From a bacterium (GTDB taxonomy: Bacteria > Patescibacteriota > Doudnabacteria > UBA920 > VMFF01), in contig JAJZOG010000007.1 of the NCBI GenBank assembly GCA_021811585.1, positions 1-55,458 of the forward strand: a DNA stretch of 55,458 nucleotides, read 5' to 3'. The translations under genes were made by a program, and so were the position numbers. Below are positions 1-51,177 of this stretch, in pieces (position 1 is the stretch's first letter; every line of letters starts with the position of its first letter). Below the pieces are notes generated by a model, which had not been told where the DNA came from, did no database searches, and saw only the letters and a program-made list of their open reading frames with translations.

Positions 1-40
1 TGTCTGGAGCGGCTGTTGGTGGTTCGCTGGCGTCCGCAAG
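1..40 (+). repeat. DGR variable repeat (VR), 3' part only; the rest lies left of the window
   Basis: 1-40 aligns to TR 449-488. There are 5 mismatches, all at TR adenines (451, 457, 460, 462, 463). The last 24 nt (16-39 vs 464-487) are identical. Confidence 0.75.
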
Positions 41-52
41 GTTTCCGAGTAG
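2..52 (+). CDS. C-terminal end of the DGR target protein (5'-truncated by the window edge)
   Basis: Frame 2 reads VWSGCWWFAGVRKVSE-stop (TAG 50-52). WWFAGVR matches the in-frame TR translation ...NWWFAGVRN. The tracked ORF 16..333 is in a different frame and is probably spurious. Confidence 0.6.
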   Translation, partial: VWSGCWWFAGVRKVSE

Positions 53-105
53 CACCTGGAAACCTGGAATTCTGGTTCCTCTGGGATCTGGATTCCAAAA
101 ACTTT

Positions 106-147
106 GGAGCTCTGCAACAAACACTTCGGTGTGCGTTGCGGAGCTCC
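106..147 (+). terminator. GC-rich stem-loop downstream of the VR/target gene: intrinsic terminator and/or DGR-associated hairpin
   Basis: ggagctctgcaacaaacac-ttcg-gtgtgcgttgcggagctcc is a near-perfect stem with a UUCG loop, followed by tttcatttt. Confidence 0.4.
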
Positions 148-371
148 TTTCATTTTGCTAAAATTTGTAACAGATGGATCGGAATCTGTGGGTACGCTTG
201 CAGATTGTCTGTCTCGCATTACCGAAGCGGTCAGAATATTTTTTGGCATAAGCTCAAAATAGCGTATTGCTTGGTAAAAAGGTTTCAAGGAAACTTGGTA
301 CGAGTTGCCGGAGGATTTAAATATCCCGGCTAAAATACAGCTTGAAGAGTATTCAACGAGCAGTGCAATAG

Positions 372-488
372 ATGACAATTCGTACGGACTACCTCACGTT
401 CAACAGGTGGAACGACAAGCGCAACGTGAACTGCAACCGCAACGACAATGACTGGAACGACAATTGGTGGTTCGCTGGCGTCCGCAAC
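372..488 (+). repeat. DGR template repeat (TR); 5' boundary approximate
   Basis: The 3' end is identical to the VR. In frame it reads MTIRTDYLTFNRWNDKRNVNCNRNDNDWNDNWWFAGVRN with 7 AAC and 2 AAT codons, the adenine-rich Asn codons typical of a TR. It lies directly upstream of avd and the RT. Confidence 0.75.
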
Positions 489-498
489 TATCCTTGAA

Positions 499-771
499 TT
501 ATTTAGTCAGCTGCTTTTGCCAGCTGCCAATAAGTTTGCCGACTTCTGCCAGTAGCGCGGAAATCTCGGCAAACTTTTTGTTATCTATTGCTTTCAGTTC
601 CCAGGTCAATTGCAGGAAGAATTTCAATATGTCCAGTTTTAGGCTTGCTTTTTTGACAACAGTAAGCTTATTTTCTCTCGAAATATAGCTTGCTGTTAGA
701 ATCAATTCAATTAACTCGGTAAGCAACACGCTAATTTTCTCGCCCAAGGAATATCTATCCAGACGAGGCAT
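499..771 (-). CDS. avd: DGR accessory variability determinant (Avd-like four-helix-bundle protein); true N-terminus probably upstream of the ATG at 771
   Basis: ...RLDRYSLGEKISVLLTELIELILTASY...KLDILKFFLQLTWELKAI...LLAEVGKLIGSWQKQ follows the Avd / 23S-IVS four-helix-bundle pattern. The frame stays open upstream to 885 and encodes LPLLQKLTAAYKLWHKTLPD (helix 1), but has no ATG/GTG/TTG there. Confidence 0.75.
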   Translation of the reverse strand: MPRLDRYSLGEKISVLLTELIELILTASYISRENKLTVVKKASLKLDILKFFLQLTWELKAIDNKKFAEISALLAEVGKLIGSWQKQLTK

Positions 772-848
772 ATCAGGAAGTGTTTTATGCCAGAGCTTAT
801 AAGCCGCTGTGAGTTTTTGTAACAGGGGAAGGTCAGTTGGTGCGTTTA

Positions 849-869
849 CTCTCTCTCTCTCTCTCTCTC
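849..869. repeat. (CT)10 dinucleotide microsatellite between avd and the RT
   Basis: ctctctctctctctctctctc is read directly from the sequence. Confidence 0.95.
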
Positions 870-887
870 GTTTTGTTCCGAAATTTT

Positions 888-1898
888 ATGAAAAGGCAAC
901 TTATCCATAGTTTTGAAGAAATTATTAGTTTAGAAAATTTATTTTCCGCTTGGCAGGAATTTTACCGTGGCAAGTCATCAAAAAAAGATGTCCAGCTTTT
1001 TGTTGCCAATCTTATTGATAACATTGTAGCGCTTCATGAAGATCTTGCCAATAAAACTTATAGGCACGGCGGCTATGAGCAGTTTGGGATATCGGATCCA
1101 AAGCCACGACAAATTCATAAGGCACAGGTTCGGGACAGGGTTTTACACCACGCGATTTATCGGATTTTGTATCCGGCGTTTGATACGGTTTTTATAGCCG
1201 ATTCTTTTTCCTGCCGAACAAACAAAGGCACGCATAAGGCGATGGATCGGTTCCAAGCCTTGGCTTACAAGGTTAGTAAAAACCATACTAGGACTTGCTG
1301 GGTCTTGAAATGCGATATAAAAAAGTTTTTTGCAAGCATAGACCATGAAGTTCTGATTGGAATTTTAAAAGAACGGATTGCGGACAAAAATATAATCTGG
1401 CTGCTGCAAAATGTTGTAGGTAGTTTTTCAATAGGCAAGCCTGGCACAGGGTTGCCGCTCGGGAACCTGACATCCCAGCTTTTCTGCAATGTTTACATGA
1501 ATGAGTTTGACCAGTTCGTTAAACAAAAACTCAAAGCCAAACATTATGTCAGATACGCTGACGATTTTGTGTTCCTGTCTGAAAATCAGGAATGGCTCAA
1601 TGGGCAGATTCCAAGGATTCAAGAATTTTTGGAGCGGAAGCTAAAGTTAAGATTGCATCCTGATAAAATTTATATCAAATCTTTTGCCGCAGGCGTAGAT
1701 TTTTTGGGATGGATCCATTTTCCAAAATACAGGCGACTGCGCACGGTTACAAAGAAGCGGATGTTTAAGAGAATAAAGGAATCGCCCAAACCCGAAACTC
1801 TTCAATCATATTTGGGTGTGCTAAGCCATGGGGATAGCTATGGCCTAGCAGAGGAGGTTATAAGCGATTATTGGCTTTTTTCGAAAAAAAGTTTTTGA
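888..1898 (+). CDS. DGR-type reverse transcriptase
   Basis: Tracked ORF 837..1898; first ATG at 888 (MKRQLIHSFEEIISLENLF). Motifs: CDIKKFFASIDH, LPLGNLTSQLFCNVYMNEFD ([I/L]GxxxSQ signature of DGR RTs) and the YADDFVF catalytic box. Confidence 0.9.
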   Translation: MKRQLIHSFEEIISLENLFSAWQEFYRGKSSKKDVQLFVANLIDNIVALHEDLANKTYRHGGYEQFGISDPKPRQIHKAQVRDRVLHHAIYRILYPAFDTVFIADSFSCRTNKGTHKAMDRFQALAYKVSKNHTRTCWVLKCDIKKFFASIDHEVLIGILKERIADKNIIWLLQNVVGSFSIGKPGTGLPLGNLTSQLFCNVYMNEFDQFVKQKLKAKHYVRYADDFVFLSENQEWLNGQIPRIQEFLERKLKLRLHPDKIYIKSFAAGVDFLGWIHFPKYRRLRTVTKKRMFKRIKESPKPETLQSYLGVLSHGDSYGLAEEVISDYWLFSKKSF

Positions 1899-2383
1899 TC
1901 TACTGATCGGCCAACATGAAATGTTAATTTTGGCATGGTGCCGTTTCGTAACCAGTAGATTCCAGCGGCAATTATGCGATGATTGCCATCCTGCACATAA
2001 TAACTCCCTGCATCTGGTTCGCCATTGACCTTTTCTCTTAGAATAATAGTACCTTGTTCCATTGAGGAGATGTCTTCTTCGAGTTGATTCAATAATTTTT
2101 CGATGTAATTTTTATTACGTCCAGATTCCCACTGGCCTAGTAATTGTTGGTTAGCAGCGTCGGCAATATTTTTTAACAGGCGGCCCTGTTTAATTAGAGC
2201 TTTTGATTCATTACAGTCGACTGTCACTAAATTTGTAAAATCATTCTCTGATAATTCTTGGGCTAAATTCCAGATAGCGCAGCAATCTATAACTCGGAGG
2301 TTTTCATCGTTACTATTAGGGGTAACGCCCTTTCGTCTTTCCCGGCTAATATAAAAGTCTTTGACTATTTGTTTGTTATCCAT
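1868..2383 (-). CDS. Hypothetical protein with a ParB/sulfiredoxin-like motif
   Basis: C-terminal SYYVQDGNHRIIAAG resembles the DGxHR motif of ParB-like nuclease domains. It is the last gene of the minus-strand operon and overlaps the RT 3' end by 31 nt. Confidence 0.45.
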   Translation of the reverse strand: MDNKQIVKDFYISRERRKGVTPNSNDENLRVIDCCAIWNLAQELSENDFTNLVTVDCNESKALIKQGRLLKNIADAANQQLLGQWESGRNKNYIEKLLNQLEEDISSMEQGTIILREKVNGEPDAGSYYVQDGNHRIIAAGIYWLRNGTMPKLTFHVGRSVDQKLFFEKSQ

Positions 2384-2432
2384 TTTTCTTTTTATCCAAA
2401 TAAATTTTCTTATCCTTCAAAATAACCTTGCT

Positions 2433-3716
2433 TTATAAAAATTGTAGCATCTTTCTTTGTTCGTCCGGATCATCGGCATCACGGAACAAAGCCTTGGCAA
2501 ATCTGCGCAAGTCAATTGCTTTTTTCTCTAGCGTCCGATCAATTACAGGTTCGCCAGTAACAAAACTATGGAAGTCATACCATTTTTCAATTTCAGCATC
2601 AAGCTCGGCGCGCATCCCAAGCAAGTCTAAATCCACATCATCAATCATATCCGCAAGCTGGCTGATCAGGTCTTGTTCGTTTATATATGGCTGCCTGCAC
2701 TTCCAGTTTTTGCCGTGGCTGCAGCCGTAATATCTGTATATAGCAATCTCGCCAGTGCTAAGTTTTTTAAATTTTTCTTGGGCTGTGACCCCGGAACCGC
2801 AATCGCCGCATTTCATAAAATGCAGGAAATTAAACTGCTTAGTCAGCTTGTATTTTTTCTTGAATGTATGCTGATTAAGTTGATCCTGGACCAAGTCAAA
2901 TAATTCTTTGGTAATAATCGGCGTATGTTGGCCTTTGTACCATTTGCCGCTTTTTCTGGGATATTCAAAGTAGCCATAATAGAAAGGTCTTCGAAGTACA
3001 AGCTGGACAGTGCTCAGTGCAATTTTATTATCAAATTTTGTTTGAAATCCGGTATCTCTGAGCCAGAATAAAATATCATAGATGCTGCATTTTTCGTATG
3101 CCACCTTTTCAAACATCTTTTTGATCACCGGCGCCCTATCTGGGTCTATTTCTACTTGGCATGCTTTATCTTTTAAGTTTGAATTCAAATACCCAAGCGG
3201 AGCAACCCCGGGCCATAAGCCCATTTCAACCCTTGCCCTCATGCCGCGCTGGACGTTGACCCCGCGATTATCATTTTCGAGCTTTGCTTGGCTGCCCAAG
3301 ATCATTAAAAGAAATTTATCATTAGGGGAGTTGGTGAATATCTGGTTATAGGTCCTGATTTCTACCAGATGCCGGCTATCCATTAAATCAACAAGCCTGC
3401 CTAAATCACCGGCGTTGCGGCTTAGTCGATCTGGATTCCAGGTTAAGATAGCATTATATTTTCCAGCTTTTAGGTCTTCAACTATTTCGTTGAATACTTT
3501 TCTCTGCCCGGAATCTTTTGCTGAATGGGATTCGGTTTTCTTAGCAACGATTTTTAGGTTTTCACGCTCCGCAATGCCCAGCATCTCTTTGAGCTGGGAA
3601 TCAATTGACAATGCCTGGCGCTCCTCGGCCTCCATGGATTTTCTGGCGTAAAGGCAGTAGGTGAGTTGATGTGATTGTTCCTTGCTTTTTTGTTTCATTT
3701 CAAATTGTTGGACCAT
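2433..3716 (-). CDS. Large serine recombinase (phage-integrase type)
   Basis: It has an N-terminal resolvase/invertase domain (YCLYARKSMEAEERQALSIDSQ... with catalytic Ser), a recombinase domain and a Cys-rich zinc ribbon (CGDCGSG...YYGCSH). The C-terminal tail looks like a coiled coil. Confidence 0.9.
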   Translation of the reverse strand: MVQQFEMKQKSKEQSHQLTYCLYARKSMEAEERQALSIDSQLKEMLGIAERENLKIVAKKTESHSAKDSGQRKVFNEIVEDLKAGKYNAILTWNPDRLSRNAGDLGRLVDLMDSRHLVEIRTYNQIFTNSPNDKFLLMILGSQAKLENDNRGVNVQRGMRARVEMGLWPGVAPLGYLNSNLKDKACQVEIDPDRAPVIKKMFEKVAYEKCSIYDILFWLRDTGFQTKFDNKIALSTVQLVLRRPFYYGYFEYPRKSGKWYKGQHTPIITKELFDLVQDQLNQHTFKKKYKLTKQFNFLHFMKCGDCGSGVTAQEKFKKLSTGEIAIYRYYGCSHGKNWKCRQPYINEQDLISQLADMIDDVDLDLLGMRAELDAEIEKWYDFHSFVTGEPVIDRTLEKKAIDLRRFAKALFRDADDPDEQRKMLQFL

Positions 3717-4228
3717 TCAACTATCAATAAAGAACTTGCTGGTACCCCACAAGCTAAAGCTCCTTCAATAAATCTTATTTGAGGTTTGGTCAGGCGATCT
3801 TTGCCTTTATTTTTTGCTTCACAAAACAGCACGGTATTATCTTTCCAAGCCAATACATCAAAACAAGCTGTTGTTTTAGAGATTTTCCAAATTCTTTGTA
3901 ATAAGGATTGTTTATTTTCAGGAATTGATACATTATTTGATCTCAATTTCCATTCAGTAGGCATCTCTTTGAGAAAATTCGTGCCACCATATGTCTCAAC
4001 CCAGATTGACTGCCAACCGGCGTCGATCAGTATTCTGGATATTGCTAGTTCTGCAAAAACTGGTTTATTTTTATAGTCGATAATGGGTTTATTACCGTAA
4101 TCAAAAGTGGGTTTTGGCCCGGTCCATAGCTTGAAAGTCGGGTGGCAAATTGGCAAAGCCGTCATTATTCCCGAATTTAACTTTACTGAAAATTCTCCGT
4201 CAGATTTTAGCTTTTTTGGTAAATCCAT
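3695..4228 (-). CDS. VRR-NUC / PD-(D/E)xK-fold nuclease-like protein
   Basis: CFDVLAWKDNTVLFCEAKNKGKDRLTKPQIRFIE gives a D...ExK pattern plus the downstream Q, as in VRR-NUC domains. It overlaps the recombinase start by 22 nt. Confidence 0.55.
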   Translation of the reverse strand: MDLPKKLKSDGEFSVKLNSGIMTALPICHPTFKLWTGPKPTFDYGNKPIIDYKNKPVFAELAISRILIDAGWQSIWVETYGGTNFLKEMPTEWKLRSNNVSIPENKQSLLQRIWKISKTTACFDVLAWKDNTVLFCEAKNKGKDRLTKPQIRFIEGALACGVPASSLLIVEWSNNLK

Positions 4229-4240
4229 ATAGGTTTATAT

Positions 4241-4810
4241 TTAGATTAGACCCTCAGATTTTATTAACGATGTAACGCAAAGCGAATACTCTTTTTCTTT
4301 GGAGGATTCTATTAGAATTTGCTCTTTGATAGCATCTTTCTCATCTATTGGTACCAATAAATATAATCTGATGAGGAGTCTAATTTTATCCAATCTCTCA
4401 GTCCTCCTTTCTAATAAGGATGGTCGGTTGAGTTTTACTAAATCCAGGGTTTTTTCTCCCTTGTCATTTGTATTAATAGAAAAAATTATTGAGTTTAGAG
4501 CATGCAAAAATTGTTCAGGATCTTCTTGGTATGGGTTAATAAGTTTTTCGTCATATTGGTCATTTTTGTATTCACGATTGCATTTAGGGCAGGCATATCC
4601 TAGATTATCCCAATCAAATTCTAAATCTGGAAAAGAGGTCTTAGGTTTTATATGCTCAACATCGCCATAATCAATATGCTCAATACGACTCTCGCAATAC
4701 ATACATTTATTAAAGCTTGATTCCTGAAGTGCTTTCTTATTTTCTGGGTGTTTGTAGTTGCTGCGTAGGGCTGTGGGATTGGGGCAGGCCGGCCGTGTCA
4801 ATTTAATCAT
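4241..4810 (-). CDS. HNH endonuclease, TIGR02646/PtuB-like
   Basis: KCMYCESRIEHIDYGDVEHIKPK...WDNLGYACPKCNREYKND is an HNH core. The N-terminal KLTRPACP... and the C-terminal LNRPSLLERR segment resemble the Septu PtuB / retron-associated HNH family. Confidence 0.75.
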   Translation of the reverse strand: MIKLTRPACPNPTALRSNYKHPENKKALQESSFNKCMYCESRIEHIDYGDVEHIKPKTSFPDLEFDWDNLGYACPKCNREYKNDQYDEKLINPYQEDPEQFLHALNSIIFSINTNDKGEKTLDLVKLNRPSLLERRTERLDKIRLLIRLYLLVPIDEKDAIKEQILIESSKEKEYSLCVTSLIKSEGLI

Positions 4811-4971
4811 TGCGGTTTTGTAATTACATTATTAAGAGCATCAGGTAAAAGTCTTTCTAAACCGATGCTTTGTAATTCAGCACGCATATTAGATAACTCT
4901 TCCTTAGTAATTTTTTTTCCTGAATATTTTTCCACCAAATTTTTTAATTTTTCCTCTGCCCAGATCGGCAT
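4807..4971 (-). CDS. Possible 54-aa ORF translationally coupled to the HNH gene (not in the ORF track)
   Basis: MPIWAEEKLKNLVEKYSGKKITKEELSNMRAELQSIGLERLLPDALNNVITKPQ. Its TGA overlaps the HNH ATG (ATGA at 4807-4810). There is no convincing SD. Confidence 0.3.
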   Translation of the reverse strand: MPIWAEEKLKNLVEKYSGKKITKEELSNMRAELQSIGLERLLPDALNNVITKPQ

Positions 4972-4991
4972 CGTAAAGGATACGCCTGGAG

Positions 4992-6038
4992 TTGAACTTG
5001 CGCTTGAACCGCAACACCGGAGAGTTCGACTTCAATCTGCTTAAAGATTTTGGTGAAGATTTTCTGGCAGATATAGGTTTCTCAAGCGAGGAGTTAGATA
5101 GTGCTTTCGGCATAGATGAATCGCCGGAAGTGTTCAATCTTGAAAAAGAATTGCAAAAGCTAGATATTAAAAAAGTGCAGCTGAAAACAGGTGATATGCT
5201 GGATCTTGATGGCAGCAGGCTTTTGGTTGGCGACTCAACCAAAGAAGCAGACATGCTGAAACTGTTTGGCAGCGAGAAAGCAGATATGTGTTTTACAGAT
5301 CCGCCATATTTGCTCGACTACCTGCATGGCAAAAAGAAAAAGCAGTCAACAAAAGGTTTTGGCCTTAAACGCGATAGAACCTATCTTGGCACAGAGTCGC
5401 TGCCTGAGAATTTTACCGACCTTTGGATGGCCAACATAGCCAAAATTCAAAAGCCAGACTTCTCCATAATCGTATACGAAAATCCAAAAAATCTGCGCAC
5501 GATTTGGAATGCGCTCGATAAGCATTGGAAGTACCGTAACACCATAATCTGGCATCTGCCTAACCGGGTGCAGGGGTTTGCTGCTAAGTATAAGTTCTTC
5601 AACAAATATGATTTTTCAATTCTTGGAACTTCTGGAAAGGTATTATTGCATGATGAGCCAGAAAGCAATCCGTTGTTGCAGGAGGAATACGAAGCTGCCT
5701 TGTTTGCCACGTCAGGCAGCCCGACCTGGGAGAAGTATGAAAAGGGTAAAAAATACTGCCCAACTGACTTTATTGAATACAAGGCAAGCGATGCCAAAAG
5801 CTCAGGCCAAGGTATTATCTTTGGAACAAAACCAGTTGAGATCCTAATACCATACATAAAAATTTTGACTAAACGCGGCGACTTGATAGCAGAACCATTT
5901 GGCGGTTCAGGATCCACTTTGATTGCTGCCACCAAGATGCAGCGCAGGTGTTTTGTTATGGAAAAAAGCAATATCTATGCCGAGGTAATCCGAAAGCGCT
6001 GGGAGAAGCTAACCGGCAAGAAAGCGAGACTTATATGA
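4992..6038 (+). CDS. DNA methyltransferase (N6-adenine/N4-cytosine, beta class, PF01555-like)
   Basis: DPPY motif (CFTDPPYLLDY) precedes the SAM motif FGGSGST. The N-terminal linker (GFSSEELDSAF...GDMLDLDGSRLLVGDS) is as in phage ParB-methylase fusions, but without the ParB domain. TTG start is uncertain. Confidence 0.85.
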   Translation: MNLRLNRNTGEFDFNLLKDFGEDFLADIGFSSEELDSAFGIDESPEVFNLEKELQKLDIKKVQLKTGDMLDLDGSRLLVGDSTKEADMLKLFGSEKADMCFTDPPYLLDYLHGKKKKQSTKGFGLKRDRTYLGTESLPENFTDLWMANIAKIQKPDFSIIVYENPKNLRTIWNALDKHWKYRNTIIWHLPNRVQGFAAKYKFFNKYDFSILGTSGKVLLHDEPESNPLLQEEYEAALFATSGSPTWEKYEKGKKYCPTDFIEYKASDAKSSGQGIIFGTKPVEILIPYIKILTKRGDLIAEPFGGSGSTLIAATKMQRRCFVMEKSNIYAEVIRKRWEKLTGKKARLI

Positions 6039-6484
6039 GCGGCAAAAATCTAAAACAGAAACAGCAGAAAACTGCGCTAGTTGAGCAACTTAAAAAAATG
6101 CCGATCATAGAGGTCGCCTGTAAGCGCATGGGTATAAGTAGGGCAGCTTACTATGTTTGGCGAAAGCAAGACATTGAATTTGCCAACATGGCTGATACTG
6201 CGATTCAAGATGGCGTCTTGTATATTAATGACCTTGCAGAATCAGGGTTGCTGTCTCAGATCAAGGACAATGATTTACAAGCAATTAAATTTTGGTTAAT
6301 CCATAGGCACTCAGCGTATGCTGCCAAACTTCAGGTTAACGCCAATCTCAATGCCTTCCAAGAACAATTAAGCCCTGACCAACAAAAAGTGGTAGATGAG
6401 GCGCTGCGTCTGCTATCGCTTAGCGATGGCGAGGAAGTAACAAAAGGAGAAAAAGAAAATGAAACTGACGCCGGAAATAATTAA
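6035..6484 (+). CDS. Terminase small subunit-like HTH protein
   Basis: Start ATG 6035 overlaps the methylase stop (ATGA). MSGKNLKQKQQKT...IIEVACKRMGISRAAYYVWRKQD is an HTH. It sits immediately upstream of, and overlaps, the large terminase. Confidence 0.6.
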   Translation: MSGKNLKQKQQKTALVEQLKKMPIIEVACKRMGISRAAYYVWRKQDIEFANMADTAIQDGVLYINDLAESGLLSQIKDNDLQAIKFWLIHRHSAYAAKLQVNANLNAFQEQLSPDQQKVVDEALRLLSLSDGEEVTKGEKENETDAGNN

Positions 6485-8024
6485 GCGCATGCACAATGAC
6501 CGCGATATTAGGAGAGCTATTACCAAGCGCAGCTTTGAAGCCTTTTTCGGCTATTATTTTGGCGATTACCTTGAATATGAAAGTGCCCCATTCCATACCC
6601 AAATGTTTAAGCTTTGTGAGAACGACAATACTAAATTGATTGTAATCAAAGGTTTCCGCGAAAGCGCCAAGTCCACCCTAATGGCTCAAGCCTATCCAAT
6701 TTGGGCGGCTATATCAGGTCGCGCTAAAGAAATAGTGGTAATTAGTAAAACCCAAATGCTTGCCCGCCATTTGCTTAAAAATATCCGCGCTGAACTGGAA
6801 GAAAATAAGTGGCTTATTAATGATTTTCAACCGTATGATTTTATGGAAGATCAGTCGGGTGCTTATGCGGTTACTTTAAAACGCTATCATTCAGAAATTA
6901 TTGCGGTATCGCGCGATCAAGGCATTCGCGGCATTCGACATCGCCAGCATAGGCCAGGTCTAATAGTCATTGACGATGCTGATGATTTGGCAAGCGTTAA
7001 AACTCAAGAATCCAGAGACGATACCTGGAACTGGCTAATGCGCGACATTATTCCTTTAGGCAGCAAGAATACTAAAATGGTAGTGCTTGGTTCGCCACTA
7101 CATGACGACAGCATGATCATGAGACTCAGCAAATCTATTGCTGATGGACTTATGAAAGGTGTGGCTCTTCATATTCCCATAGTTGATGACGCGGGCAAAC
7201 CAACTTGGCCTGCAAAGTTTCCAACCCAAGCAGATATTGAGGAGGCACGCAGTAAAATGGATGAATTAGCTTGGCAAAGGGAAATGATGCTAAAGATAGT
7301 TCCCGAAAATGGACAAATTATCAGCCGTGAGGATATATCTTTTTATGATGAGCAGCCACTTAGGTCAGATTCTAAATCTGAGTTTATTGAACGGATCGGT
7401 TCAATTGATTTTGCTTTAAAAGACAAGCAATCTGCTGATTTTACAGCAATGGTTGAAGGAGATATTTATGGATATGACCAAGAACGAGTTATATATATTC
7501 AGCCAAATCCGTTAAACAAAAGATTGGAGTCACACCAGGCGCTAAACGAAGCGGTCCTGCGTTCCAATCCGCCAGGATCTAAATATCCAAACAAGCTTGT
7601 TGTTGAAGACGTTGGCGCCTCAATAGTTTTTATTGACCTGCTAAAGCAAAGCCATATTCCAGTTCAAAGTTTCCAGCTTAAAAGCCAAGATAAACGAGAG
7701 CGATTTTCCATAGCCGCAAGCTGGATTAAAACCGGCAGAGTAAAACTGCCGCGTCATGGCTGCGAGCGGCTCATTGAACAAATAGTAGGCTTTGGAACAG
7801 AGCGTTTCGATGACCTTTTGGACGCGCTTGTTCAACTGATCATTTATGTCATGGAAAATAATGGCGGAAAAATGGGAGGAATAGTGTCAATAGATTTAGG
7901 AATTGATTATAACCTTGAAGGCGGACTGCTTCCTGCCAATTATAGGCCACCACATCTTTTGCCACTTAGACGAAGCACGAATATAAATAACATCTTGGGT
8001 AAAAGCAGATATCTTAGAGACTAA
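6459..8024 (+). CDS. Phage terminase large subunit
   Basis: Walker A-like GFRESAKST and Walker B LIVIDDADD. The C-terminal RNaseH-like nuclease part has IDFALKDKQSADFTAMV, VEDVG and FDDLLDALV. SD aaaggag lies upstream. Confidence 0.85.
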   Translation: MKLTPEIIKRMHNDRDIRRAITKRSFEAFFGYYFGDYLEYESAPFHTQMFKLCENDNTKLIVIKGFRESAKSTLMAQAYPIWAAISGRAKEIVVISKTQMLARHLLKNIRAELEENKWLINDFQPYDFMEDQSGAYAVTLKRYHSEIIAVSRDQGIRGIRHRQHRPGLIVIDDADDLASVKTQESRDDTWNWLMRDIIPLGSKNTKMVVLGSPLHDDSMIMRLSKSIADGLMKGVALHIPIVDDAGKPTWPAKFPTQADIEEARSKMDELAWQREMMLKIVPENGQIISREDISFYDEQPLRSDSKSEFIERIGSIDFALKDKQSADFTAMVEGDIYGYDQERVIYIQPNPLNKRLESHQALNEAVLRSNPPGSKYPNKLVVEDVGASIVFIDLLKQSHIPVQSFQLKSQDKRERFSIAASWIKTGRVKLPRHGCERLIEQIVGFGTERFDDLLDALVQLIIYVMENNGGKMGGIVSIDLGIDYNLEGGLLPANYRPPHLLPLRRSTNINNILGKSRYLRD

Positions 8025-13296: not shown

Positions 13297-13340
13297 ATGT
13301 TTTTACGGGTTTTTTTATGGGTCCCCCCAAACCTAAAAAT

Positions 13341-13393
13341 GGGTCCAACCCAAACCCCCAACCTAAACCCCTAATCTAAATCCCCAATCTAAA
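13341..13393 (+). repeat. Solo arm (C-rich orientation) of the G-tract palindromic element; inverted partner at 15951-16003
   Basis: gggtccaacccaaacccccaacctaaacccctaatctaaatccccaatctaaa matches the reverse complement of 15951-16003 at 51/53 positions. Confidence 0.9.
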
Positions 13394-15887: not shown

Positions 15888-15950
15888 ATTCGGTTGGCTC
15901 AGAAATTTTTTGCAAACTCAAAATCGCTTCCCGGCGATTTTTTAGATTGG

Positions 15951-16003
15951 GGGTTTGGATTAGGGGTTTAGGTTGGGGGTTTGGGTTGGACCCGTTTAAT
16001 AAA
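15951..16003 (+). repeat. Solo arm (G-rich orientation) of the G-tract palindromic element
   Basis: tttagattgggggtttggattaggggtttaggttgggggtttgggttggaccc. Confidence 0.9.
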
Positions 16004-22877: not shown

Positions 22878-23111
22878 TTAATCGATTCTGATAATTTTAG
22901 GAGTTAAAAATTCCTGCTCGAAAAAGACCTTGGGCAAAGCTTGTGATTGTTCCATCTCCGTTTTTCTGCGCCGGCGTTCTTTCTGCAGATCCTGTTTTGC
23001 CGCCTGCTGTTCTTCGAATTCGAGCTTTTCCAATATCAAATGATATGTCTTAAGCGGAATAAACGGTTTAATTTTTTCAAGTTTTTCGCGTCTGGTCATA
23101 CGGGTCGTCAT
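22878..23111 (-). CDS. Small charged hypothetical protein
   Basis: MTTRMTRREKLEKIKPF... has its first ATG 2 nt from the repeat element; the second ATG is at 23099. The tracked ORF extension MGWTR is encoded by the repeat. It ends 6 nt before the next gene. Confidence 0.5.
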   Translation of the reverse strand: MTTRMTRREKLEKIKPFIPLKTYHLILEKLEFEEQQAAKQDLQKERRRRKTEMEQSQALPKVFFEQEFLTPKIIRID

Positions 23112-23113
23112 AC

Positions 23114-23294
23114 GGGTCCAACCCAAACCCCCAACCTAACTCCCCAATCTAAGGACACGATTGTGGTGTTTAGGCAAGTGTTTTAATAATATTTTAATTG
23201 AGTTTCCCTTATATATTGCATAAATATCCTTAGATTGGGGGTTTGGATTAGGGGTTTAGGTTGGGGGTTTGGGTTGGGGTATTGGGTTGGACCC
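23114..23294. mobile_element. 181-bp MITE-like palindromic element, copy 1
   Basis: 41-nt C-rich left arm (23114-23154), 73-nt AT-rich core and 67-nt G-tract right arm (23228-23294). It differs from 50997-51177 by a single base. Confidence 0.85.
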
Positions 23295-25519: not shown

Positions 25520-26686
25520 TTACGCCGCGTTCGCCGCTGCGGATTTTACAGAACCTTGCCGCGTTTGTCCGCTTTGGCTGGCATTCAAATCGTCGGATGA
25601 GCTTAATGTGCCGGATTGCGCGGATTTAAAAATTATAATGCGCTCGGATTTTGATGCGGCTGTATTTTTTGGAGTCAGCTCGGCCGCCGAAGGGGATTCA
25701 TGAACCGCTGCTGAATGGAATTCATGGATCGCCGCCGAAGGGGATTCATGAACCGCTGCTGAATGGAATTCATGGATCGCCGCCGAAGGGGATTCATGAA
25801 CCGCTGCTGAATGGAATTCATGGATCGCCGCCGAAGGGGATTCATGGGCCACCGCCCTTGGGAGATCCTCTATTTTTTGACCCTCCGCTTTTAAGATTTC
25901 CACTTTTTGGACTTCTATCTGCTGCACGTTCTCAGAAATATTTTCAGAAACGCTCTCAAGTGCAACGCCTTCCAGGGAAATTCCTGTTTCCAAAACTATC
26001 TGCCTGTATTGCTCCGCCGCCTCGCCTTCAAAAGAGATTTCATTTTTGGTTTGTTGGCTGCGCATGTCCGCGTCCCAGACCTGTTCGTCTCCGTCAAAAT
26101 TCTCAGCCGCTGCCTCGCTGATTTTTTTAATGCAAGTTACAGCTGTTCTTGATTCGAAATGATAGATAATTATGGATTTTTCACCGCGTTCGTTGGAAGA
26201 AAATTCCTGAATGCCCCAGCCGTGTTTGTAAACTTCGGCCATGGCCTGCCCGTAGGCCGCTTTGTCTTCAGCGCGCGTCATGAATTCGGACCACGGCTTT
26301 GCCATTTCCTCGGTCGGCCCTGAGGCGCAAAATTCGCCGTTGGAAAAAAATCCCATTGTCGAAGCGACAAAAGAAAAACCCTCGGGTATTAAAACGGAAA
26401 AAGTTTGTTCGGAAATTTTTGGTTTTTCTTCTTCCAATGTTTCTTCAAATTCGTTTTCAGCATCCTCGATGTTTTCCGGATTCTCCATAATGTCCTCGAC
26501 GTTCTCCGGATTTTGCACGACATTTTCCAAACTCTCCGCAACGTTCTCGACGTTCTCCGGATTCGCGGCATTTTCCGCGTCTTCGCTCTCAGCGGCAAAG
26601 GATTCGCGCGAAAAAATATCTTCATTTCGCGTTGATAGAAAATCTGATTGCGTTTCTTCGGGTATTGTTGAAATTATTTCGCTCAT
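25520..26686 (-). CDS. Acidic repeat-containing hypothetical protein
   Basis: 388-aa ORF with NPENVE-type acidic repeats, a globular middle part and (HESPSAAIHEFHSAAV)n repeats. Confidence 0.6.
   Translation of the reverse strand: MSEIISTIPEETQSDFLSTRNEDIFSRESFAAESEDAENAANPENVENVAESLENVVQNPENVEDIMENPENIEDAENEFEETLEEEKPKISEQTFSVLIPEGFSFVASTMGFFSNGEFCASGPTEEMAKPWSEFMTRAEDKAAYGQAMAEVYKHGWGIQEFSSNERGEKSIIIYHFESRTAVTCIKKISEAAAENFDGDEQVWDADMRSQQTKNEISFEGEAAEQYRQIVLETGISLEGVALESVSENISENVQQIEVQKVEILKAEGQKIEDLPRAVAHESPSAAIHEFHSAAVHESPSAAIHEFHSAAVHESPSAAIHEFHSAAVHESPSAAELTPKNTAASKSERIIIFKSAQSGTLSSSDDLNASQSGQTRQGSVKSAAANAA
25683..25850. repeat. 48-bp tandem repeat, about 3.5 units, inside the CDS
   Basis: The unit gccgccgaaggggattcatgaaccgctgctgaatggaattcatggatc starts at 25683, 25731, 25779 and 25827 (partial). 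Confidence 0.95.
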
Positions 26687-28492: not shown

Positions 28493-31400
28493 ATGGCAGA
28501 TGAAAATAAAAATTTAAACAGCGATCCGATCTCTCTGGCAGAAGCGAGCAGGATTTCAGGGTACCATCAGGATTACCTGGGTTTTTTGGCGCGCACCGGA
28601 AAATTGGCTGCCAGCAAAATCGGGCGCAACTGGGTGACCACCAAGGAAGCGGTAGAAAATTTCATGAAAATGCCGGGCACTGATGCGGAAGAAAAAAACG
28701 CCGGCACTGTTGAAGATGAATCGGGAAACAAAATTCCAATCCACGTACAGCAACATTCGGCGGAACAATTGTCGATAATTGCACAGCTGGACAAGCTGCG
28801 CGGGAATGTGATTAGAGAAGTTGCCAAACAAGCTGCGCATGAGTCGCTTGCTGAGGCGGCTGCTGCAGCAGCATCGGCAACGGTAGCAGCAGCATCGGCA
28901 GCGGCATTGACGGCAACCTCGGCAGCAGCATCTGAAGCAAACAAAACTGGCGATGCGAGCAGCGGAAATAATTTATCTGCTGTGAAAGAAACAATCCTCC
29001 GGCTTGATGACAACCAGAAGCACGAAGATTTAAAAAACGAGATTCAAAAAAATCTTGAACAGGCGAAGGCATCGCTTTCAGAGCATGTTGAAAATGTTTT
29101 GAAACAGAACGGCCATTCGATGAATGTTGCAAGCGATGCAAACGGCTCGGGTATGAGCTCGGGTGCGGGCACTGGTTTGGGATCTGGTATGGGTTTGGGT
29201 GTGAGCTTGGGTGCGGACGCTGGCACCGCGGAAACGCACGGTACTGAGAAAGGCGCAAACTTTGCCCCAACCTTGCCTATCGCGCCGTCTGCAACATTGG
29301 CAGGAGCAGCAGTATCAACAGCAACATCTGCAGCATCAACATCTGCAGCAGGAGTTGCGGCAGCATCAACATCAACATCGGCAACATCAGGGGCACCGGC
29401 AGCAATATCATTAGCGGCAACAGCAACATCTGCACAAGCAGCGCAAAATGAAAAGAAAAATCAAAGCGCATTTGCAGCGGCAGCAGCGCCGGCTGCTTTT
29501 GCGGGCATTGATGCGGCATTGAACAAGCCGCAACTTAATTTGGCGAAGCTGTTTGGATCTTTCGCGTCAAAAATTGTTTTGCCAAAAAAGATTTGGGTAA
29601 CAGCTGCGGCTGCTTTGGCGCTGACAACAACCGGCACTATTGTTTATTTCCATGCTTTTGTGGATCGGCAAATAAGCGTGGTCTACAAACAAATTGCTGC
29701 AAATAATTTGAGCCAGAATCAGATGGCGCAAAATAATCAGGGCGCAAACGGCTCGGGTGCAAATGGCACAAACGGCTCTGGCCAAAATTCCGGAAACGCG
29801 AATGAAAAAAATTCCAGCGGTGCGGGCAGCGGTGCGGGCAGCGGTGCGGGCACTAGCACAGGCAACGGCGCAGGCAACGGCGCAGGTTCAGGCAACGGCG
29901 CGGGCATTGGTTCCAACCTTGCATACGGCTCGCGCACAATCATTGAAAAATTTTATATCCAGGGCACGCCTGGTCCGCAAGGGCAGCCCGGACCCCAAGG
30001 TCCTCCGGGGCCCCAAGGTCCGCAAGGAAATAATGGCACTTCTTCGCCGGGATCATATGCTCCCGGCTCCGGCATTATTTATTCGCCTGTTTTTAATCCG
30101 CCGCTTCCTTCTGTGACAGCGCCTTCGGCATTCGGTTCCACGGAACTTTCGGCGCAGGATTTAAACATCAGCAACAATACAAACCTGAACAATGTGACTG
30201 TCAGCGGCGCAACAACTTTCCAGGGCCTGGTGACTTTTAACAGCCAATCGTATTTGAGCGTGGTCGCGGACACTGCGCAACCGGCAATTTCCGTAACTCA
30301 AAACGGCACAGGCGATATTTTTGATCTTGCAAATTCCACCGGCCAGGTTTTGAACGTGGCAAACAACGGTGCGCAGACAATCACGGAAAATAATTCCAAT
30401 TCAACGCCGGCACTCACGGTGAACAATGTCGTGAGCGGCTCAACCGGAAGCGCGGCGGTTTTCACAAGCGCGGCAACGGATAACGCCAACCCGACCATTG
30501 AAGTTACGCAGGACGGCGCTGCGGCTGGGCTTGAAGTCCAGGGCAGCACGATTCTCGCGCAGACCTCCGCGCAGACAGGCGACATGCTCCAATTGCAAAA
30601 CACCGGCGGCAGCGTTTTAGTGCGCGAGGATAATCACGGCGATACGGAACAGCTCGGCATGATCAACAATCCTTACGGCGGCATTGGCTCGTATGAAAAT
30701 CTTTTGCAGTATTCGGAAAATTTTGCGAACTCGGCGTGGACAGCGCAGGCCGGCGTTTCGGCGCCAACGCAAACAGGCACTGCGCCGGACGGCCAGGCAG
30801 CGTCTTATGAAATTACGAACACAACCGCAGGCGCCGGCTTGTACCAGCAAACCACGGAAGCGGCTGCAAGCCAAACAGCAACTTTTTCCGTGTGGGCGCG
30901 ATCGGTTTCCGGAAGCCAGCATTTCCAAATCGGCATGCTTGAAGGCGCGAGCGGCTCTGCCGCAAACATTACGGCAACTTCAGGCGAGCCGGCCCCGTCA
31001 AACGCGAGCAACGCGGCGAGCGGCGTGCTTTCCGCAACCGCGACAACAACTTGGCAGAGGTTTGCCGTAACTTCAACTTTCAAATCTTCGGCAGTTGGAA
31101 ACCTTGCTGCATTTATTTTGCCTGGCGGCGCATCAACAGGGAGCATTGAGGTCTGGGGCGCGCAAATAGAAGAATCCGCTGTGCCGGGCGTTTACGTGCA
31201 GACAAATAACCAGACAATTGCGCAAGGATATGGCGCGGTTTCCGCCGGCCAGCCAAACGGCCCTTACAGCGAAGTTATCACTGTTGCGAAAACCGGCGCC
31301 GAGTTCAGCGATGTTGCAAAAGCGTATGCGTATGCGAAAACTTTAAGCCCTTCTGCCACAAACCAAATTTTGATCAAAATCCAGCCGGGAACTTACGCCG

Positions 31401-34400
31401 ACAACCTCACGCTGGACACTGATTTTATTTCCATCCTCGGAGCTGATAAAAACGAGACGGCAATTACAAGCTCTTCAACAACGCCGGCAATGGCAATTTC
31501 CGGAAACTTAACTGCAGCCACAATTTCAGGCCTCACAATTTCCAACACTTCCACAGGCGCGGGCGCAGATGCTTTGGACATAAGCGCCGGCAGCGCGCGC
31601 CTTTCGCAAAACATTATTGCCGACTCCGGCACCACAACTTCCAACGCAGTAAGCATTACCGGCGGCGCGCCGGCATTCGACGATAACGAAATTTCCGAAA
31701 GCTCTTCGGGCACGGCTGTCTCCGCATCTGCCGGAACATTTTCCAACAACACAATTTCCGCAACATCCGGAACAGCGCTTGCTTACACTGGCACAGGCAC
31801 GATATTAAATAATTTAATCTCCTCGGCAAGCAGCCAGGGAATTGCGGCAAGCACAGCTGCCAAATATCAGGATAACAATGTCAGCGCAGGCGGATATGCT
31901 GCGGCAATTTCAGCCGGCAGCCCTGTTTTCACAGGCGGCAGGTATGCAACAACAGCGGCATCCGGCGCAGCCATTTATGTTTCCGCAAACACCGCAACCC
32001 CGATTTTCTTAAACCTTGAAGCAGACGGCACTGGCACAGAATATTCCATTGATGCTGTTGCGGGCACGACAATTTCCGAAGCAAACCTTGCGCTTAACAA
32101 GGGAATAAATTATACGCATATCGGCGCAAACGATACGTATGTTGCCACTGACGCGCGCGTGCAAGTGCAAGGCAGCTCCGCAAACCCCGCGCTCTCCGTA
32201 ACCCAAACAGGCGCAGGCGATATTGCGGATTTGTTCCAGGGCGCAGACGGCCTGAAAATAGACAATCTCGGCCAAACCACTTTTACATCCGATTCCACGG
32301 CAACGAATCCGACAATAACAATCACCCAAGGCGCAACCGGCGTGGCTGCGCTTAAAGTAAACGGCAGCACAACCTTGAACGGAAACGTCTCCCTTGCTTC
32401 CACAAACCCGATAATAGACACAGCAGGCGCATCCTCAACGCTTGGCATCAACACCACGAACAACCGGCCTGTAACTTTTGGGACAGGCACTGTTACAATT
32501 CCGAATCTTGAGGTTACAAACAGCCAGACATCTGCCGGCACGTTTACAATGAATTCCAATGCCACAACCCAAAGCGTTTTTACAATAACGGCAAGCGACC
32601 TTACATCAGGCACAATGTTCAACGAAACGCTTACGGCAAATGCCGGCAACGGGCAAACAACCTCTGGACAGATAATGAACCTCACGGACGCAACAACCGC
32701 TGCCGGCGGATACACGGCATTGGCAATAAACGTAACTCCTGACGGCGGCACCGGCACCGGCAACAAATATTTGCTGTCATTGAACCCGGACACAAGCACA
32801 AGCGCAAATGAAGTTGTTTTTGATTCCAGCGGCGCGCTGCGTCCCACGACATCAGCATCGCAAAACACGAATTCAATAGGATCTACTTCGTATTATTTCC
32901 GCAACGGCTATTTTGATACTTTGACGGCAAACAATTTAAGCGGCACGGTTGTGACCGGCGCAACATCATCAACAACATGGACAATCGGCTCCACGCAAAC
33001 AGGCGATGTCAACGAGGCGCTTATTTTCCAGCGCAACTCCGGCAGCGGCAACGCGCTTTTGCAGTGGAACGCTTCAAACGGCACGCTTAACGACCAGCGC
33101 TATTTGAGCGCAAATTATCCGTTCAATGTAAATTACACTGTGGACGGCTCTTCCATCGGCGCAAATGCGGATTTGTTTTCCGGAATGCTTACGAACAATA
33201 CCACAAGCGGCACGCAGAATTTGCTTTCACTCACAAACACAGGCACAGGCACAACTGCAAATGGAATTTATATAAATAACACAGGCACAGGCACAACTGC
33301 AATTCAAATCGCAGGCACATGGGGCACAGGCATTCTCACAAACAACAATTCCATTAATGCAGGCACAGGTTCAATCACCAGCGGTTCAATTTCATCCGGC
33401 GCAATTACTTCCACAGGTGCACTCTCGGTTTTAACCACAACTTCTCCGCAGCTCACAGTAGGATACAGCACCGGAAATACTTGGACTTCCTCAACCACAT
33501 CCGCAGGAGCCACAACATTCACCTTTAACGGCACAGGATCATCCGCAACCTTCAAACCCGCAACCGACTCGGCATCAGCATTTAACTTTGAAACATCCGG
33601 CGGAACATCTGTGCTGAATGTAGATACTACTAACGGAAGAGTCGGCATCGGGACGAGCAGCCCGGGGAGGGTTCTCGATGTTGCGTCACATAATGCGGCC
33701 GATGAAACAGCTGGATTCTTTTATTCAACCACTGGTACTGGCGTGGATATATTAGGAGGGGTGGATGGTAGCCAGGTAAATCTGATTGGTACTACTAATG
33801 GCATTACCGAACCCAAGCTTCACCTCGGCTCTGGATGGACAAACCGCAATAATTCGGTTGGTCTTACTATTGATACATCTGGCAACGTCGGCATCGGAAC
33901 AACTTCTCCAACCGCAACCCTTGCCATCCAGCCCGCAGCAACATCAGCAGGAACACCGGCCACAACCGGTTCTGGCTTGCAATTGCTCGGCGCAACCTTC
34001 ACGGATAATGCCACAGCAGCATCGGGCACAGCAGCATCCTATGCCCAAGCATCCATATCACAACAAACCCTTGCAGCAACAAACACTGTCGTTACCACAA
34101 CAAATGCCTATGGCCTGAATATCCTTGGCCCTGTTACAGGCGGTACCAACGAAACCCTGACAAACTCAACTGCCCTAAACATTGCCTCAGCAGCACTTGC
34201 CAATACCACTAATGGCTATGGCCTTCAGGTAAATGCCCCTACCGGTGCAACTAATAACTATGCGGCGAGCTTTATGAATGGCAATGTCGGCATTGGAACA
34301 GTAGGACCTGGCAGTCGCCTTGTAGTTGTTGGTTCAACTTCTGACAACACTGCTAACGCTCTTGATGTGCAAAATTCAGGCAACACATCAATATTAAAAG

Positions 34401-50556: not shown

Positions 50557-50994
50557 TTAATTTTGCCTGCGCCTGATATCTCGCTCAACCTCGCGCCGCT
50601 TTATTGTTTCGCGCTTATCGTATTGTTTTTTCCCGTAGCCAATGCCGATTTTGAGTTTTATAAGGCCTTCGCCTGTTTCCATAATTTCAAGCGGGATAAT
50701 AACAGAACCCCTCTCTTTGCCGATTAATGAGTTGATTTCTTTTTTCTTAAGCAAAAGTTTTCTCGGCTGTTCTGGGTCGAAATTTTTATTTTCGCCAGCA
50801 TATTTATAAGGAGAAATGTGCGCGTGCGTTAAAAATGCTTCCTCGCCCTTAATGGAAATATAAGCGCCGGCAAGCGATCCTTGGCCGTTTTTTAAGCTTT
50901 TGACTTCTTGGCCAGAAAGAATAAGCCCCGCGGTCAGCTGGTTTTTTATTTCGTAATTAAAACGCGCTTTTCTGTTGGTTACCAAGGTTTTCAT
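50557..50994 (-). CDS. smpB: SsrA-binding protein SmpB
   Basis: MKTLVTNRKARFNYEI...GQEVKSLK...ISPY...RKLLLKKKEI...GYGKKQYDKRETIKRRE. The tracked N-terminal MGWTR is encoded by the repeat. Confidence 0.95.
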   Translation of the reverse strand: MKTLVTNRKARFNYEIKNQLTAGLILSGQEVKSLKNGQGSLAGAYISIKGEEAFLTHAHISPYKYAGENKNFDPEQPRKLLLKKKEINSLIGKERGSVIIPLEIMETGEGLIKLKIGIGYGKKQYDKRETIKRREVERDIRRRQN

Positions 50995-50996
50995 AC

Positions 50997-51177
50997 GGGT
51001 CCAACCCAAACCCCCAACCTAACTCCCCAATCTAAGGACACGATTGTGGTGTTTAGGCAAGTGTTTTAATAATATTTTAATTGAGTTTCCCTTATATATT
51101 GCATAAATATCCTTAGATTGGGGGTTTGGATTAGGGGTTTAGGTTGGGGGTTTAGGTTGGGGTATTGGGTTGGACCC
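50997..51177. mobile_element. 181-bp MITE-like palindromic element, copy 2
   Basis: Same architecture as 23114-23294, with 1 mismatch. It fills almost the whole smpB-argS divergent spacer. Confidence 0.85.

Follow-up and report, generated by a model that had tools for sequence, protein, structure and literature searches.

A polymorphic simple repeat in the 5' coding part of avd as a putative slipped-strand switch of a diversity-generating retroelement in Patescibacteria

The regulation of diversity-generating retroelements (DGRs), and especially the way in which a useful variant of the target protein is retained, is largely unexplained. A DGR is found at the left end of the 55,458-base stretch of Patescibacteria DNA analysed here (contig JAJZOG010000007.1 of assembly GCA_021811585.1; hereafter the window). 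Its accessory gene avd occupies minus-strand positions 499–908, between the template repeat (TR, 388–487) and the reverse transcriptase (RT) gene (888–1898), and the 5' part of avd contains a simple repeat, (CT)10 at 849–868 followed by a C at 869 on the plus strand; read along avd, the tract is G(AG)10. Is this tract a switch? A preliminary description of the locus had proposed that it may turn the DGR on and off by strand slippage. This proposal is supported by our data, since both frame states exist and the tract is polymorphic, while the effects on the protein and on retrohoming would follow from the reading frames. We consider it probable, judging from the frames and alleles presented below, that the tract acts as a slipped-strand phase-variation switch on Avd and hence on mutagenic retrohoming. 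A slippage switch on Avd would offer a simple answer to the problem of variant retention.

The 21-nt (CT)10C tract at 849–869 is present as originally reported. It is the sole dinucleotide run of more than five units in the whole window, in which homopolymers reach a maximal length of 8, and no match to (CT)10C, even with two mismatches allowed, was obtained in 100 dinucleotide-preserving shuffles. The preliminary description placed the tract between the divergent avd and RT genes. The divergent orientation stands, but the tract lies inside the 5' coding region of avd, 13 codons past the ATG at 908, and its end is 18 nt upstream of the RT ATG at 888. It is also correct that the tract is in frame with the RT from TTG 837, which is true of GTG 840 as well; a role of the resulting SLSLSL extension is not supported, however, as the RT homologues begin at an ATG. 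These homologues, 325–345 residues long, cover the query from its start and align with ATG 888, so the tract is not RT coding sequence, and an RT extended from TTG 837 or GTG 840 was rejected on this ground. The SLSLSL extension is present only in the 10-unit allele.

On the avd strand the body frame reads NFGTKRERERERVNAPTDLPLLQKLTAAYKLWHKTLPDMPRL... from position 885 and, starting with DLPLLQK at about 834 and continuing downward, encodes a four-helix bundle. As the preliminary description had it, this frame contains no ATG, GTG or TTG between 885 and ATG 771; thus no canonical start is available in the window between the tract and helix 1, and the sole in-frame near-cognate codon, CTG 825–823, is not accompanied by a ribosome-binding motif. 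The short peptide that had been predicted to open at ATG 908 and to stop at TAA 848–846 was confirmed for the 10-unit allele (Table 1); in the 9-unit allele the same leader runs on into the Avd body. The homologues of the avd product found by protein search (134–145 residues) aligned over the whole length of the in-frame product, and for P0005, P0008, P0013 and P0016 (MAQLSFHNNSFKQAPPQRNFSNANLPVLQK) the alignment with the 9-unit product MDKLPFHKISEQNERERERVNAPTDLPLLQK runs from one end to the other. The Avd homologues begin with MxQLxFH. Because their N-termini (MAQLSFHNNSFKQAPPQRNF..LPVLQK) align with the ATG 908 product read through the tract, we take ATG 908, and not ATG 771, to be the native avd start of the family; the comparison of homologous N-termini, which the preliminary description had named as a check, favours the upstream codon. 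The open reading frame (ORF) starting at ATG 771 (499..771) would yield a 90-residue product that, according to the structural model, would be devoid of helix 1 (residues 25–45). A start at the Leu codon of the LPxLQK motif was considered as well and rejected as the usual mode of initiation: only 33 of 115 loci have TTG at this codon, and the window has CTT.

The identity of the minus-strand product as Avd is indicated by its match to the Pfam family bAvd (57.2 bits with a cut-off of 40) and to the NCBIfam model DivGenRetAVD, of which all the profile positions 1–104 are covered at a score of 70.4 bits, below the equivalog cut-off of 80. The AlphaFold model (mean pLDDT 87.5) predicts helices at residues 25–45, 48–74, 77–103 and 109–134. 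The best structural matches found by Foldseek were the Bordetella phage Avd in its complex with the RT (8ub7) and the free Avd (4dwl), the target-normalised TM-score of the model to the Avd chains of these structures being 0.81–0.88. A sequence-profile search of the PDB with Avd gave no match, and here it was the fold comparison that provided the link to Avd. A sigma-70-like sequence located inside the RT gene is a candidate avd promoter (Table 1).

All the evidence on tract alleles comes from assembled consensus sequences, and the allele differences are differences between assemblies. The lineages were sampled via the RT protein, a procedure blind to the avd frame; the allele counts refer to the contigs shown only and give minimum numbers of samples, similar places having been collapsed. 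The preliminary description had pointed to related genomes as one place to look for variation of the tract length, and a 9-unit allele was indeed found there, so the tract is not invariant. The independent contig that carries it (L001; Logan, SRR13221994) has (CT)9C and differs from the window over 4,788 nt by one missing CT unit and by nothing else. Read from the ATG, its minus strand encodes an Avd of 135 residues without interruption, in agreement with the earlier frame count, by which the loss of one CT unit or the gain of two would fuse the start to the body. L002/L003 (ENA ERZ27237454) has (CT)10C, as the window does, and over 4,898 nt the sole differences between L003 and the window are at window positions 3, 8 and 15, which belong to the variable repeat (VR) and are all TR-adenine sites. 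According to the database counts the window lineage is represented by three contigs with 10 units and one with 9, and the VR and the tract are its two fastest-changing features.

The tract turned out to be polymorphic in four of the seven RT-sampled lineages, in each case with 100% identical flanks. We refer to an allele as ON where the upstream start is in frame with the Avd body and as OFF where it is not. In the window lineage (GA)10 was found three times and (GA)9, the ON allele, once; in the P0047 lineage G8 (OFF) was found three times and G9 once, the latter (L177) being ON by translation; the P0054 lineage contained C9 five times and C10 once, and the P0128 lineage C11 four times and C10 once, all of them OFF. 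The P0066 (C9, four times), P0051 (G8, three times) and P0110 (C9, four times) lineages contained one allele each, OFF in all the contigs. ON/OFF pairs were seen in L001 and the window, in L177 and L174, and in L031 and L116; in the last pair C9 (in frame) and C10 (out of frame) are embedded in 300-nt flanks that are 100% identical on both sides. An exact-flank search of a viral contig collection for other tract alleles gave 0 matches.

The frame relation was then considered over a wider set of 160 related loci obtained by protein-guided retrieval, 149 of which contain both genes and 145 of which entered the repeat statistics. All the retrieved relatives are assemblies of the candidate phyla radiation (CPR)/Patescibacteria, the closest being labelled Candidatus Doudnabacteria, and the RT is divergent from and upstream of avd in 148 of the 149 loci. 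An in-frame ATG upstream of helix 1 is present in 26 of the 28 repeat-free loci, and the repeat-free in-frame loci with a strict 21-nt overlap of the two genes all start at the conserved ATG (12/12). The poly-C loci behave differently: 39 are ON via the upstream ATG, 6 have only GTG or TTG in frame and 67 are OFF, which makes the in-frame contrast with the repeat-free loci highly significant (Fisher p = 1.4e-8). In all 67 OFF loci an out-of-frame ATG is followed by codons without a stop as far as the tract, and the poly-C loci with the strict 21-nt overlap are distributed over frames 0, 1 and 2 as 11, 17 and 11.

The presence of a repeat at this place is not peculiar to the window lineage. Within the 159-nt avd 5' junction a poly-C run of at least 8 was found in 107 of the 145 related loci and a dinucleotide run of at least 6 units in 5 of them, while 613 kb of flanking sequences contain only 8 and 2 such runs, respectively; a density equal to that of the flanks would give 0.30 runs in the junctions. 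The avd-strand poly-C has its mode at C9–C11 and ranges from C6 to C14, with the addition of one C30 locus (L049, Ga0209542_10000534), where the 30 consecutive C of the junction correspond to ten prolines and are out of frame with the upstream ATG. The motif itself is variable: (GA)9–10 on the avd strand in the window lineage, G8–G9 in the two closest lineages (RT 74–78% identical; sampled separately), C9–C10 in the next one (RT 70% identical), and (CA)8, (CA)12, (GA)6 and (AG)7 in L016, L078, L140 and L137, respectively. The tract is always preceded by an avd-strand ATG whose frame stays open as far as the repeat, and helix 1 is no more than 23 nt away; in the relatives the tract lies 14–45 nt upstream of the RT ATG. 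It is the repetitive DNA that is conserved and not the peptide, because CCC makes up only 24% of the Pro codons in these genes, yet the Pro codons at the site are all CCC, and because the peptides at the repeat site (PPP, ERER, HTHT, GGG) are unrelated. The codon usage indicates that selection on the poly-C run acts on the DNA. PPP as a conserved peptide motif was rejected for these same reasons.

A slippage-prone repeat at the exact avd site can be regarded, from the loci compared, as a conserved feature of this DGR family, which goes beyond what had been claimed for the single locus. Three features of a contingency locus are found here: a repeat in the 5' coding part that is long enough to slip (from about 8 bases for a homopolymer and about 6 units for a dinucleotide), length polymorphism between otherwise near-identical genomes, and the existence of both frame states of a conserved body. 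For the whole CPR/Patescibacteria DGR family, which comprises thousands of RT homologues (roughly 8,000), we lean, with some reserve, towards the view that the avd leader, at or shortly past the overlap with the RT start, is a conserved contingency locus serving as a stochastic heritable hypermutation switch.

The working of such a switch can be envisaged as follows. The avd gene would be translated from ATG 908, the ribosome would meet the (AG)n repeat about 13 codons further on, and replication slippage (slipped-strand mispairing) would add or remove tract units. If the number of units is a multiple of three (9 or 12), the start would be joined to the four-helix bundle to give full-length Avd (ON). 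At 10 or 11 units translation would stop after about 20 residues, and the next start in the body frame would be Met46, located past helix 1 (OFF). The window itself, as far as the reading frame tells, carries an OFF allele. The synthesis of cDNA by the Bordetella phage DGR requires the RT–Avd complex (PMC6182149). Since both Avd and RT are needed for retrohoming in that phage, an Avd in the OFF state should freeze the VR sequence. An OFF allele would then halt retrohoming with the RT, TR and target undamaged, and a return to ON would resume the diversification; both the protein output and retrohoming would follow the avd frame. The cells would diversify while ON, and the lineages that persist would be those that had slipped OFF with a useful variant (lock-in). 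The ON cells would scramble the variable protein and the OFF majority would keep the variant. Such a switch may have been selected for bet-hedging.

Several observations weigh against this scheme. The fraction of ON loci (39/112) is indistinguishable from the one third expected under a neutral frame, and only 2 of the 30 contigs shown from the 7 RT-sampled lineages are in frame, the other 28 being OFF. The VRs are diversified between populations with a majority OFF allele; in the P0054 lineage they differ at 17 positions under a shared OFF allele, the rest of the cassette being identical. Such VR diversity under an OFF majority is predicted by the lock-in, and it is equally predicted if Avd is made independently of the frame. 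About half of the related loci have, between tract and helix 1, a TTG, GTG or ATG at which translation might alternatively begin. These codons are, however, equally frequent in ON and OFF loci and, because of this and of the rarity of TTG at the Leu codon of LPxLQK, there is no conserved downstream start. Some homopolymer lengths may have been miscalled in a few low-coverage or long-read assemblies. Finally, poly-C runs are hot spots of +1 ribosomal frameshifting, which could leak expression from some OFF alleles.

This last point can be extended to a leaky or tunable Avd that is made from every tract length, at a graded low level, by ribosomal frameshifting or RNA polymerase slippage. The sequence CCC-C favours +1 frameshifting, and long homopolymers favour transcriptional slippage; the frame that requires a +1 shift is the commonest one among the poly-C loci with the overlapping ATG (17/39), and the OFF alleles form the majority in every multiply sampled lineage, yet the VRs diversify. 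A programmed recoding site would, on the other hand, need a fixed frame relation, whereas all three relations occur, and a fixed slippery motif, whereas the site is occupied by C6–C14 (C30 in one locus), G8–9, (GA)6–10 or (CA)8–12; on both counts the site does not look like programmed recoding. For the window allele the shift on GAGAGA would have to be −1 or +2, and we know of no slippage mechanism that would provide it. In-frame alleles, moreover, occur in the same lineages. The leaky expression is weakened by these facts, although it retains some force for the poly-C loci, and we consider it unlikely as a general explanation. Another possibility is that the repeat acts on the RT strand, as a part of the RT promoter or 5' untranslated region or of a DGR RNA extending from TR to RT, and tunes the RT or the RNA, the avd frame being incidental. 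The short distance from the tract to the RT ATG, both in the window and in the relatives, speaks for such an action, as does the fact that the tract would appear in a TR–RT transcript as (CU)n or poly-G. Divergent promoters governed by a repeat have precedents such as the hif genes of Haemophilus influenzae. The position of the tract is nevertheless tied to the avd ATG and to helix 1, whereas its distance to the RT ATG varies more. The RT-strand motif, which is mostly poly-G, poly-C in the closest relatives and CU or UG elsewhere, has no apparent shared element. The promoter and terminator scan revealed no sigma-70-like promoter spanning the tract, which is a weak test for a CPR organism, and the Rfam scan of window positions 1–2500 gave only a chance-level miRNA match. 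Any length change would, in addition, necessarily alter the avd frame. A promoter-spacer switch between divergent genes is not supported, the tract being inside the avd frame with no promoter match spanning it, and an action on the RT strand in general seems to us quite improbable.

It may also be supposed that the tract has no function at all, being a neutral hot spot in a decaying or dispensable avd gene, an assembly artefact, or a sequence bypassed by a tract-independent start at ATG 771 or at a non-canonical codon. The ON fraction of about one third is what would be expected without selection on the frame, the lengths of homopolymers can be miscalled in assemblies, and some DGRs are wholly without avd (PMC5758913). 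However, the Avd body is intact across the homologues, with 58% mean column identity and no internal stops, and about 77% of the 145 diverged loci retain a repeat here, about 350-fold above the flank density and with its motif turning over, which a neutral hot spot would not lead one to expect. Against an artefact, the 10-unit allele emerged from assembly three times and the 9-unit one from a separate assembly, and the 19–21-nt tract is shorter than the k-mers of the assemblers. A start at ATG 771 would remove helix 1, the only near-cognate codon is the CTG that lacks a ribosome-binding motif, and downstream start codons are no commoner in the OFF loci than in the ON loci. The absence of function is, to our judgement, very improbable, and the frame switch on Avd remains the explanation that we prefer.

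The coordinates of the features of the locus are collected in Table 1. The RT gives an RVT_1 match of 87.7 bits, and its matches to other RT classes in NCBIfam are all far below the cut-offs; its assignment to the DGR type rests on RVT_1 and on the LGNLTSQ and YADD motifs. Where the two starts overlap, the ATG of either gene lies opposite the His7 codon CAT of the other (MKRQLIH and MDKLPFH). The identical 21-nt overlap is present in 55 of 148 related loci, and this antisense overlap of two start regions is an unusual gene architecture by itself. The dual-coding constraint that it imposes probably explains the conserved MxQLxFH and MKxxLxH N-termini. The TR and the RT gene are on the same strand and avd is antisense between them. 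The TR differs from the VR of L003 by 18 mismatches, 18 of 18 at TR adenines. The DGR of the window can be judged live, because TR and VR differ only at TR adenines and because the VRs differ between samples. The order TR-(avd)-RT corresponds to the 'B3' architecture reported for 90% of CPR DGRs (PMC5758913), and the window DGR fits it with its adenine-specific TR/VR differences, DGR-type RT motifs and opposite-strand Avd.

Table 1. Features of the DGR locus in window coordinates
Feature	Position	Strand	Basis or remark
Variable repeat 3' end (1–40) and end of the target gene (stop 49–51)	1..51	+	Remaining target upstream of the window
Template repeat, 100 nt	388..487	+	Compared with the complete VR of L003
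Avd body frame	499..885	-	Open from 885, stop 499–501; bAvd, DivGenRetAVD, AlphaFold/Foldseek
Internal ATG, Met46 of full-length Avd	769..771	-	First canonical start of the body frame in the 10-unit allele
avd start codon ATG 908–906 and leader codons	846..908	-	20-residue peptide MDKLPFHKISEQNERERERE ending at TAA 848–846 in the 10-unit allele
Simple-sequence repeat (CT)10C	849..869	.	Sequence, shuffles, 9- and 10-unit alleles with identical flanks
RT/avd start overlap, 21 nt, head-to-head	888..908	.	RT codons 1–7 antisense to avd codons 1–7
DGR reverse transcriptase, 336 residues, start MKRQLIH	888..1898	+	RVT_1; LGNLTSQ and YADD; homologue starts
Candidate avd promoter, sigma-70-like match TTGGCA-17-TACAAT	1023..1051	-	Inside RT, upstream of avd ATG 908; consensus match only

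The surroundings of the cassette contain genes for a large serine recombinase (2433–3716), an HNH endonuclease (4241–4810) and a DNA methyltransferase (4992–6038), all within the interval 2433–8024, and the small and large terminase subunits are encoded at 5948–8024. Because recombinase, HNH, methyltransferase and terminase genes adjoin it, the DGR borders or belongs to a prophage-like element. In the P0054 lineage, positions 1–2500 of the contigs L178, L179 and L181, covering the cassette from the target to the RT, are identical except for the 17 VR positions, while from about 2620 on the contigs show many differences in the chromosomal genes rpsO and pnp. The identity of the cassette along with the differences in rpsO and pnp suggests that the cassette was recently transferred, or exchanged by recombination, between diverged strains.

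Repeats of other kinds are present elsewhere in the window. G-rich 13-nt tandem units, TTAGATTGGGGGT and the complement CCAACCCAAACCC, are found at 13337–13393, 15941–16002, 23103–23294 and 50986–51177; they form inverted pairs 71–103 nt apart, and a second copy of a 192-nt block, 98% identical, lies at a distance of 27.9 kb. A perfect 48-nt tandem repeat (25683–25856; 3.4 copies with 100% identity) lies in the minus-strand ORF 25520–26686. A single reading frame of 3,853 residues (28493–40054) contains many internal repeats, including three 300-nt copies with 94–99% identity (34669–36672) and Thr/Ser-rich 21-nt arrays near its 3' end.

If the tract does switch Avd, diversification would be confined to a minority ON sub-population and the variants would be frozen when the tract slips OFF, the whole system being a hypermutable switch that controls a hypermutator. 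The idea applies to about 100 of the related loci sampled. It may also have consequences for annotation. At L164–L199 the gene callers cut avd to 65–119 residues, starting it from an internal ATG or TTG, or omitted it, and this poor calling can be attributed to the frameshifted leader together with the forbidden 5'-5' overlap with the RT. It follows that avd may be under-counted or mis-annotated in surveys of CPR DGRs, and switchable DGRs may be classed as defective.

Neither repeat control of avd, nor the 21-nt start overlap, nor the leader repeat is mentioned in the papers on the Bordetella phage and CPR DGRs cited above (PMC6182149, PMC5758913). In the literature on DGRs or Avd in connection with phase variation, homopolymers, frameshifts or simple repeats nothing was found, although Paul et al. 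2017 (Nat Microbiol) may mention it, and no contingency repeat controlling a DGR or another mutagenic system was met in the literature searched.

Well-studied systems offer close parallels to the mechanism. The outer-membrane protein genes oipA/hopH, sabA and hopZ of Helicobacter pylori are switched by CT repeats in the 5' coding region. As in these genes, (CT)n is found in our locus few codons past the start and a one-unit change shifts the frame of the body, but the H. pylori genes encode surface adhesins of a pathogen, whereas the product of avd works inside the cell, as accessory factor to a retroelement of a CPR bacterium, and, in contrast to them, its start region overlaps the start of the divergent RT gene. 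In the hifA/hifB pair of H. influenzae a (TA)n repeat changes the spacing between the −35 and −10 elements and affects the transcription of both genes. The likeness consists in a simple repeat at the 5' ends of two divergent genes of one system; unlike the hif repeat, however, the avd repeat is inside a reading frame and would act at least on the translation of one of the genes.

Poly-G and poly-C contingency loci are known in Campylobacter, Neisseria and Bordetella (PMC8355987, PMC5084427, PMC1891110), and contingency loci have recently been reported in phages T2 and T4 (PMC12633550). Such loci have runs of about 8–13 bases in reading frames, which are polymorphic between near-identical genomes and produce reversible frameshifts, and the relatives of the window locus carry homopolymer runs of this kind with the mode at C9–C11. 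The known loci mostly control surface structures, restriction-modification systems or phage structural genes, whereas here the gene concerned is a DGR accessory gene, and, unlike in those loci, the position of the repeat is conserved across a large and deeply diverged gene family. With the DGR of Bordetella phage BPP-1 our system shares the RT, the four-helix Avd and the adenine-specific TR/VR relation (PMC6182149; 8ub7, 4dwl). In BPP-1, however, avd is co-oriented with brt, while here it runs in the opposite direction and is flanked by TR and RT, which is the CPR B3 arrangement (PMC5758913). In comparison with all these systems the mechanism that we propose is classical; what is new is the target of the switch, a DGR accessory gene, and the conservation of its site across a large CPR family.

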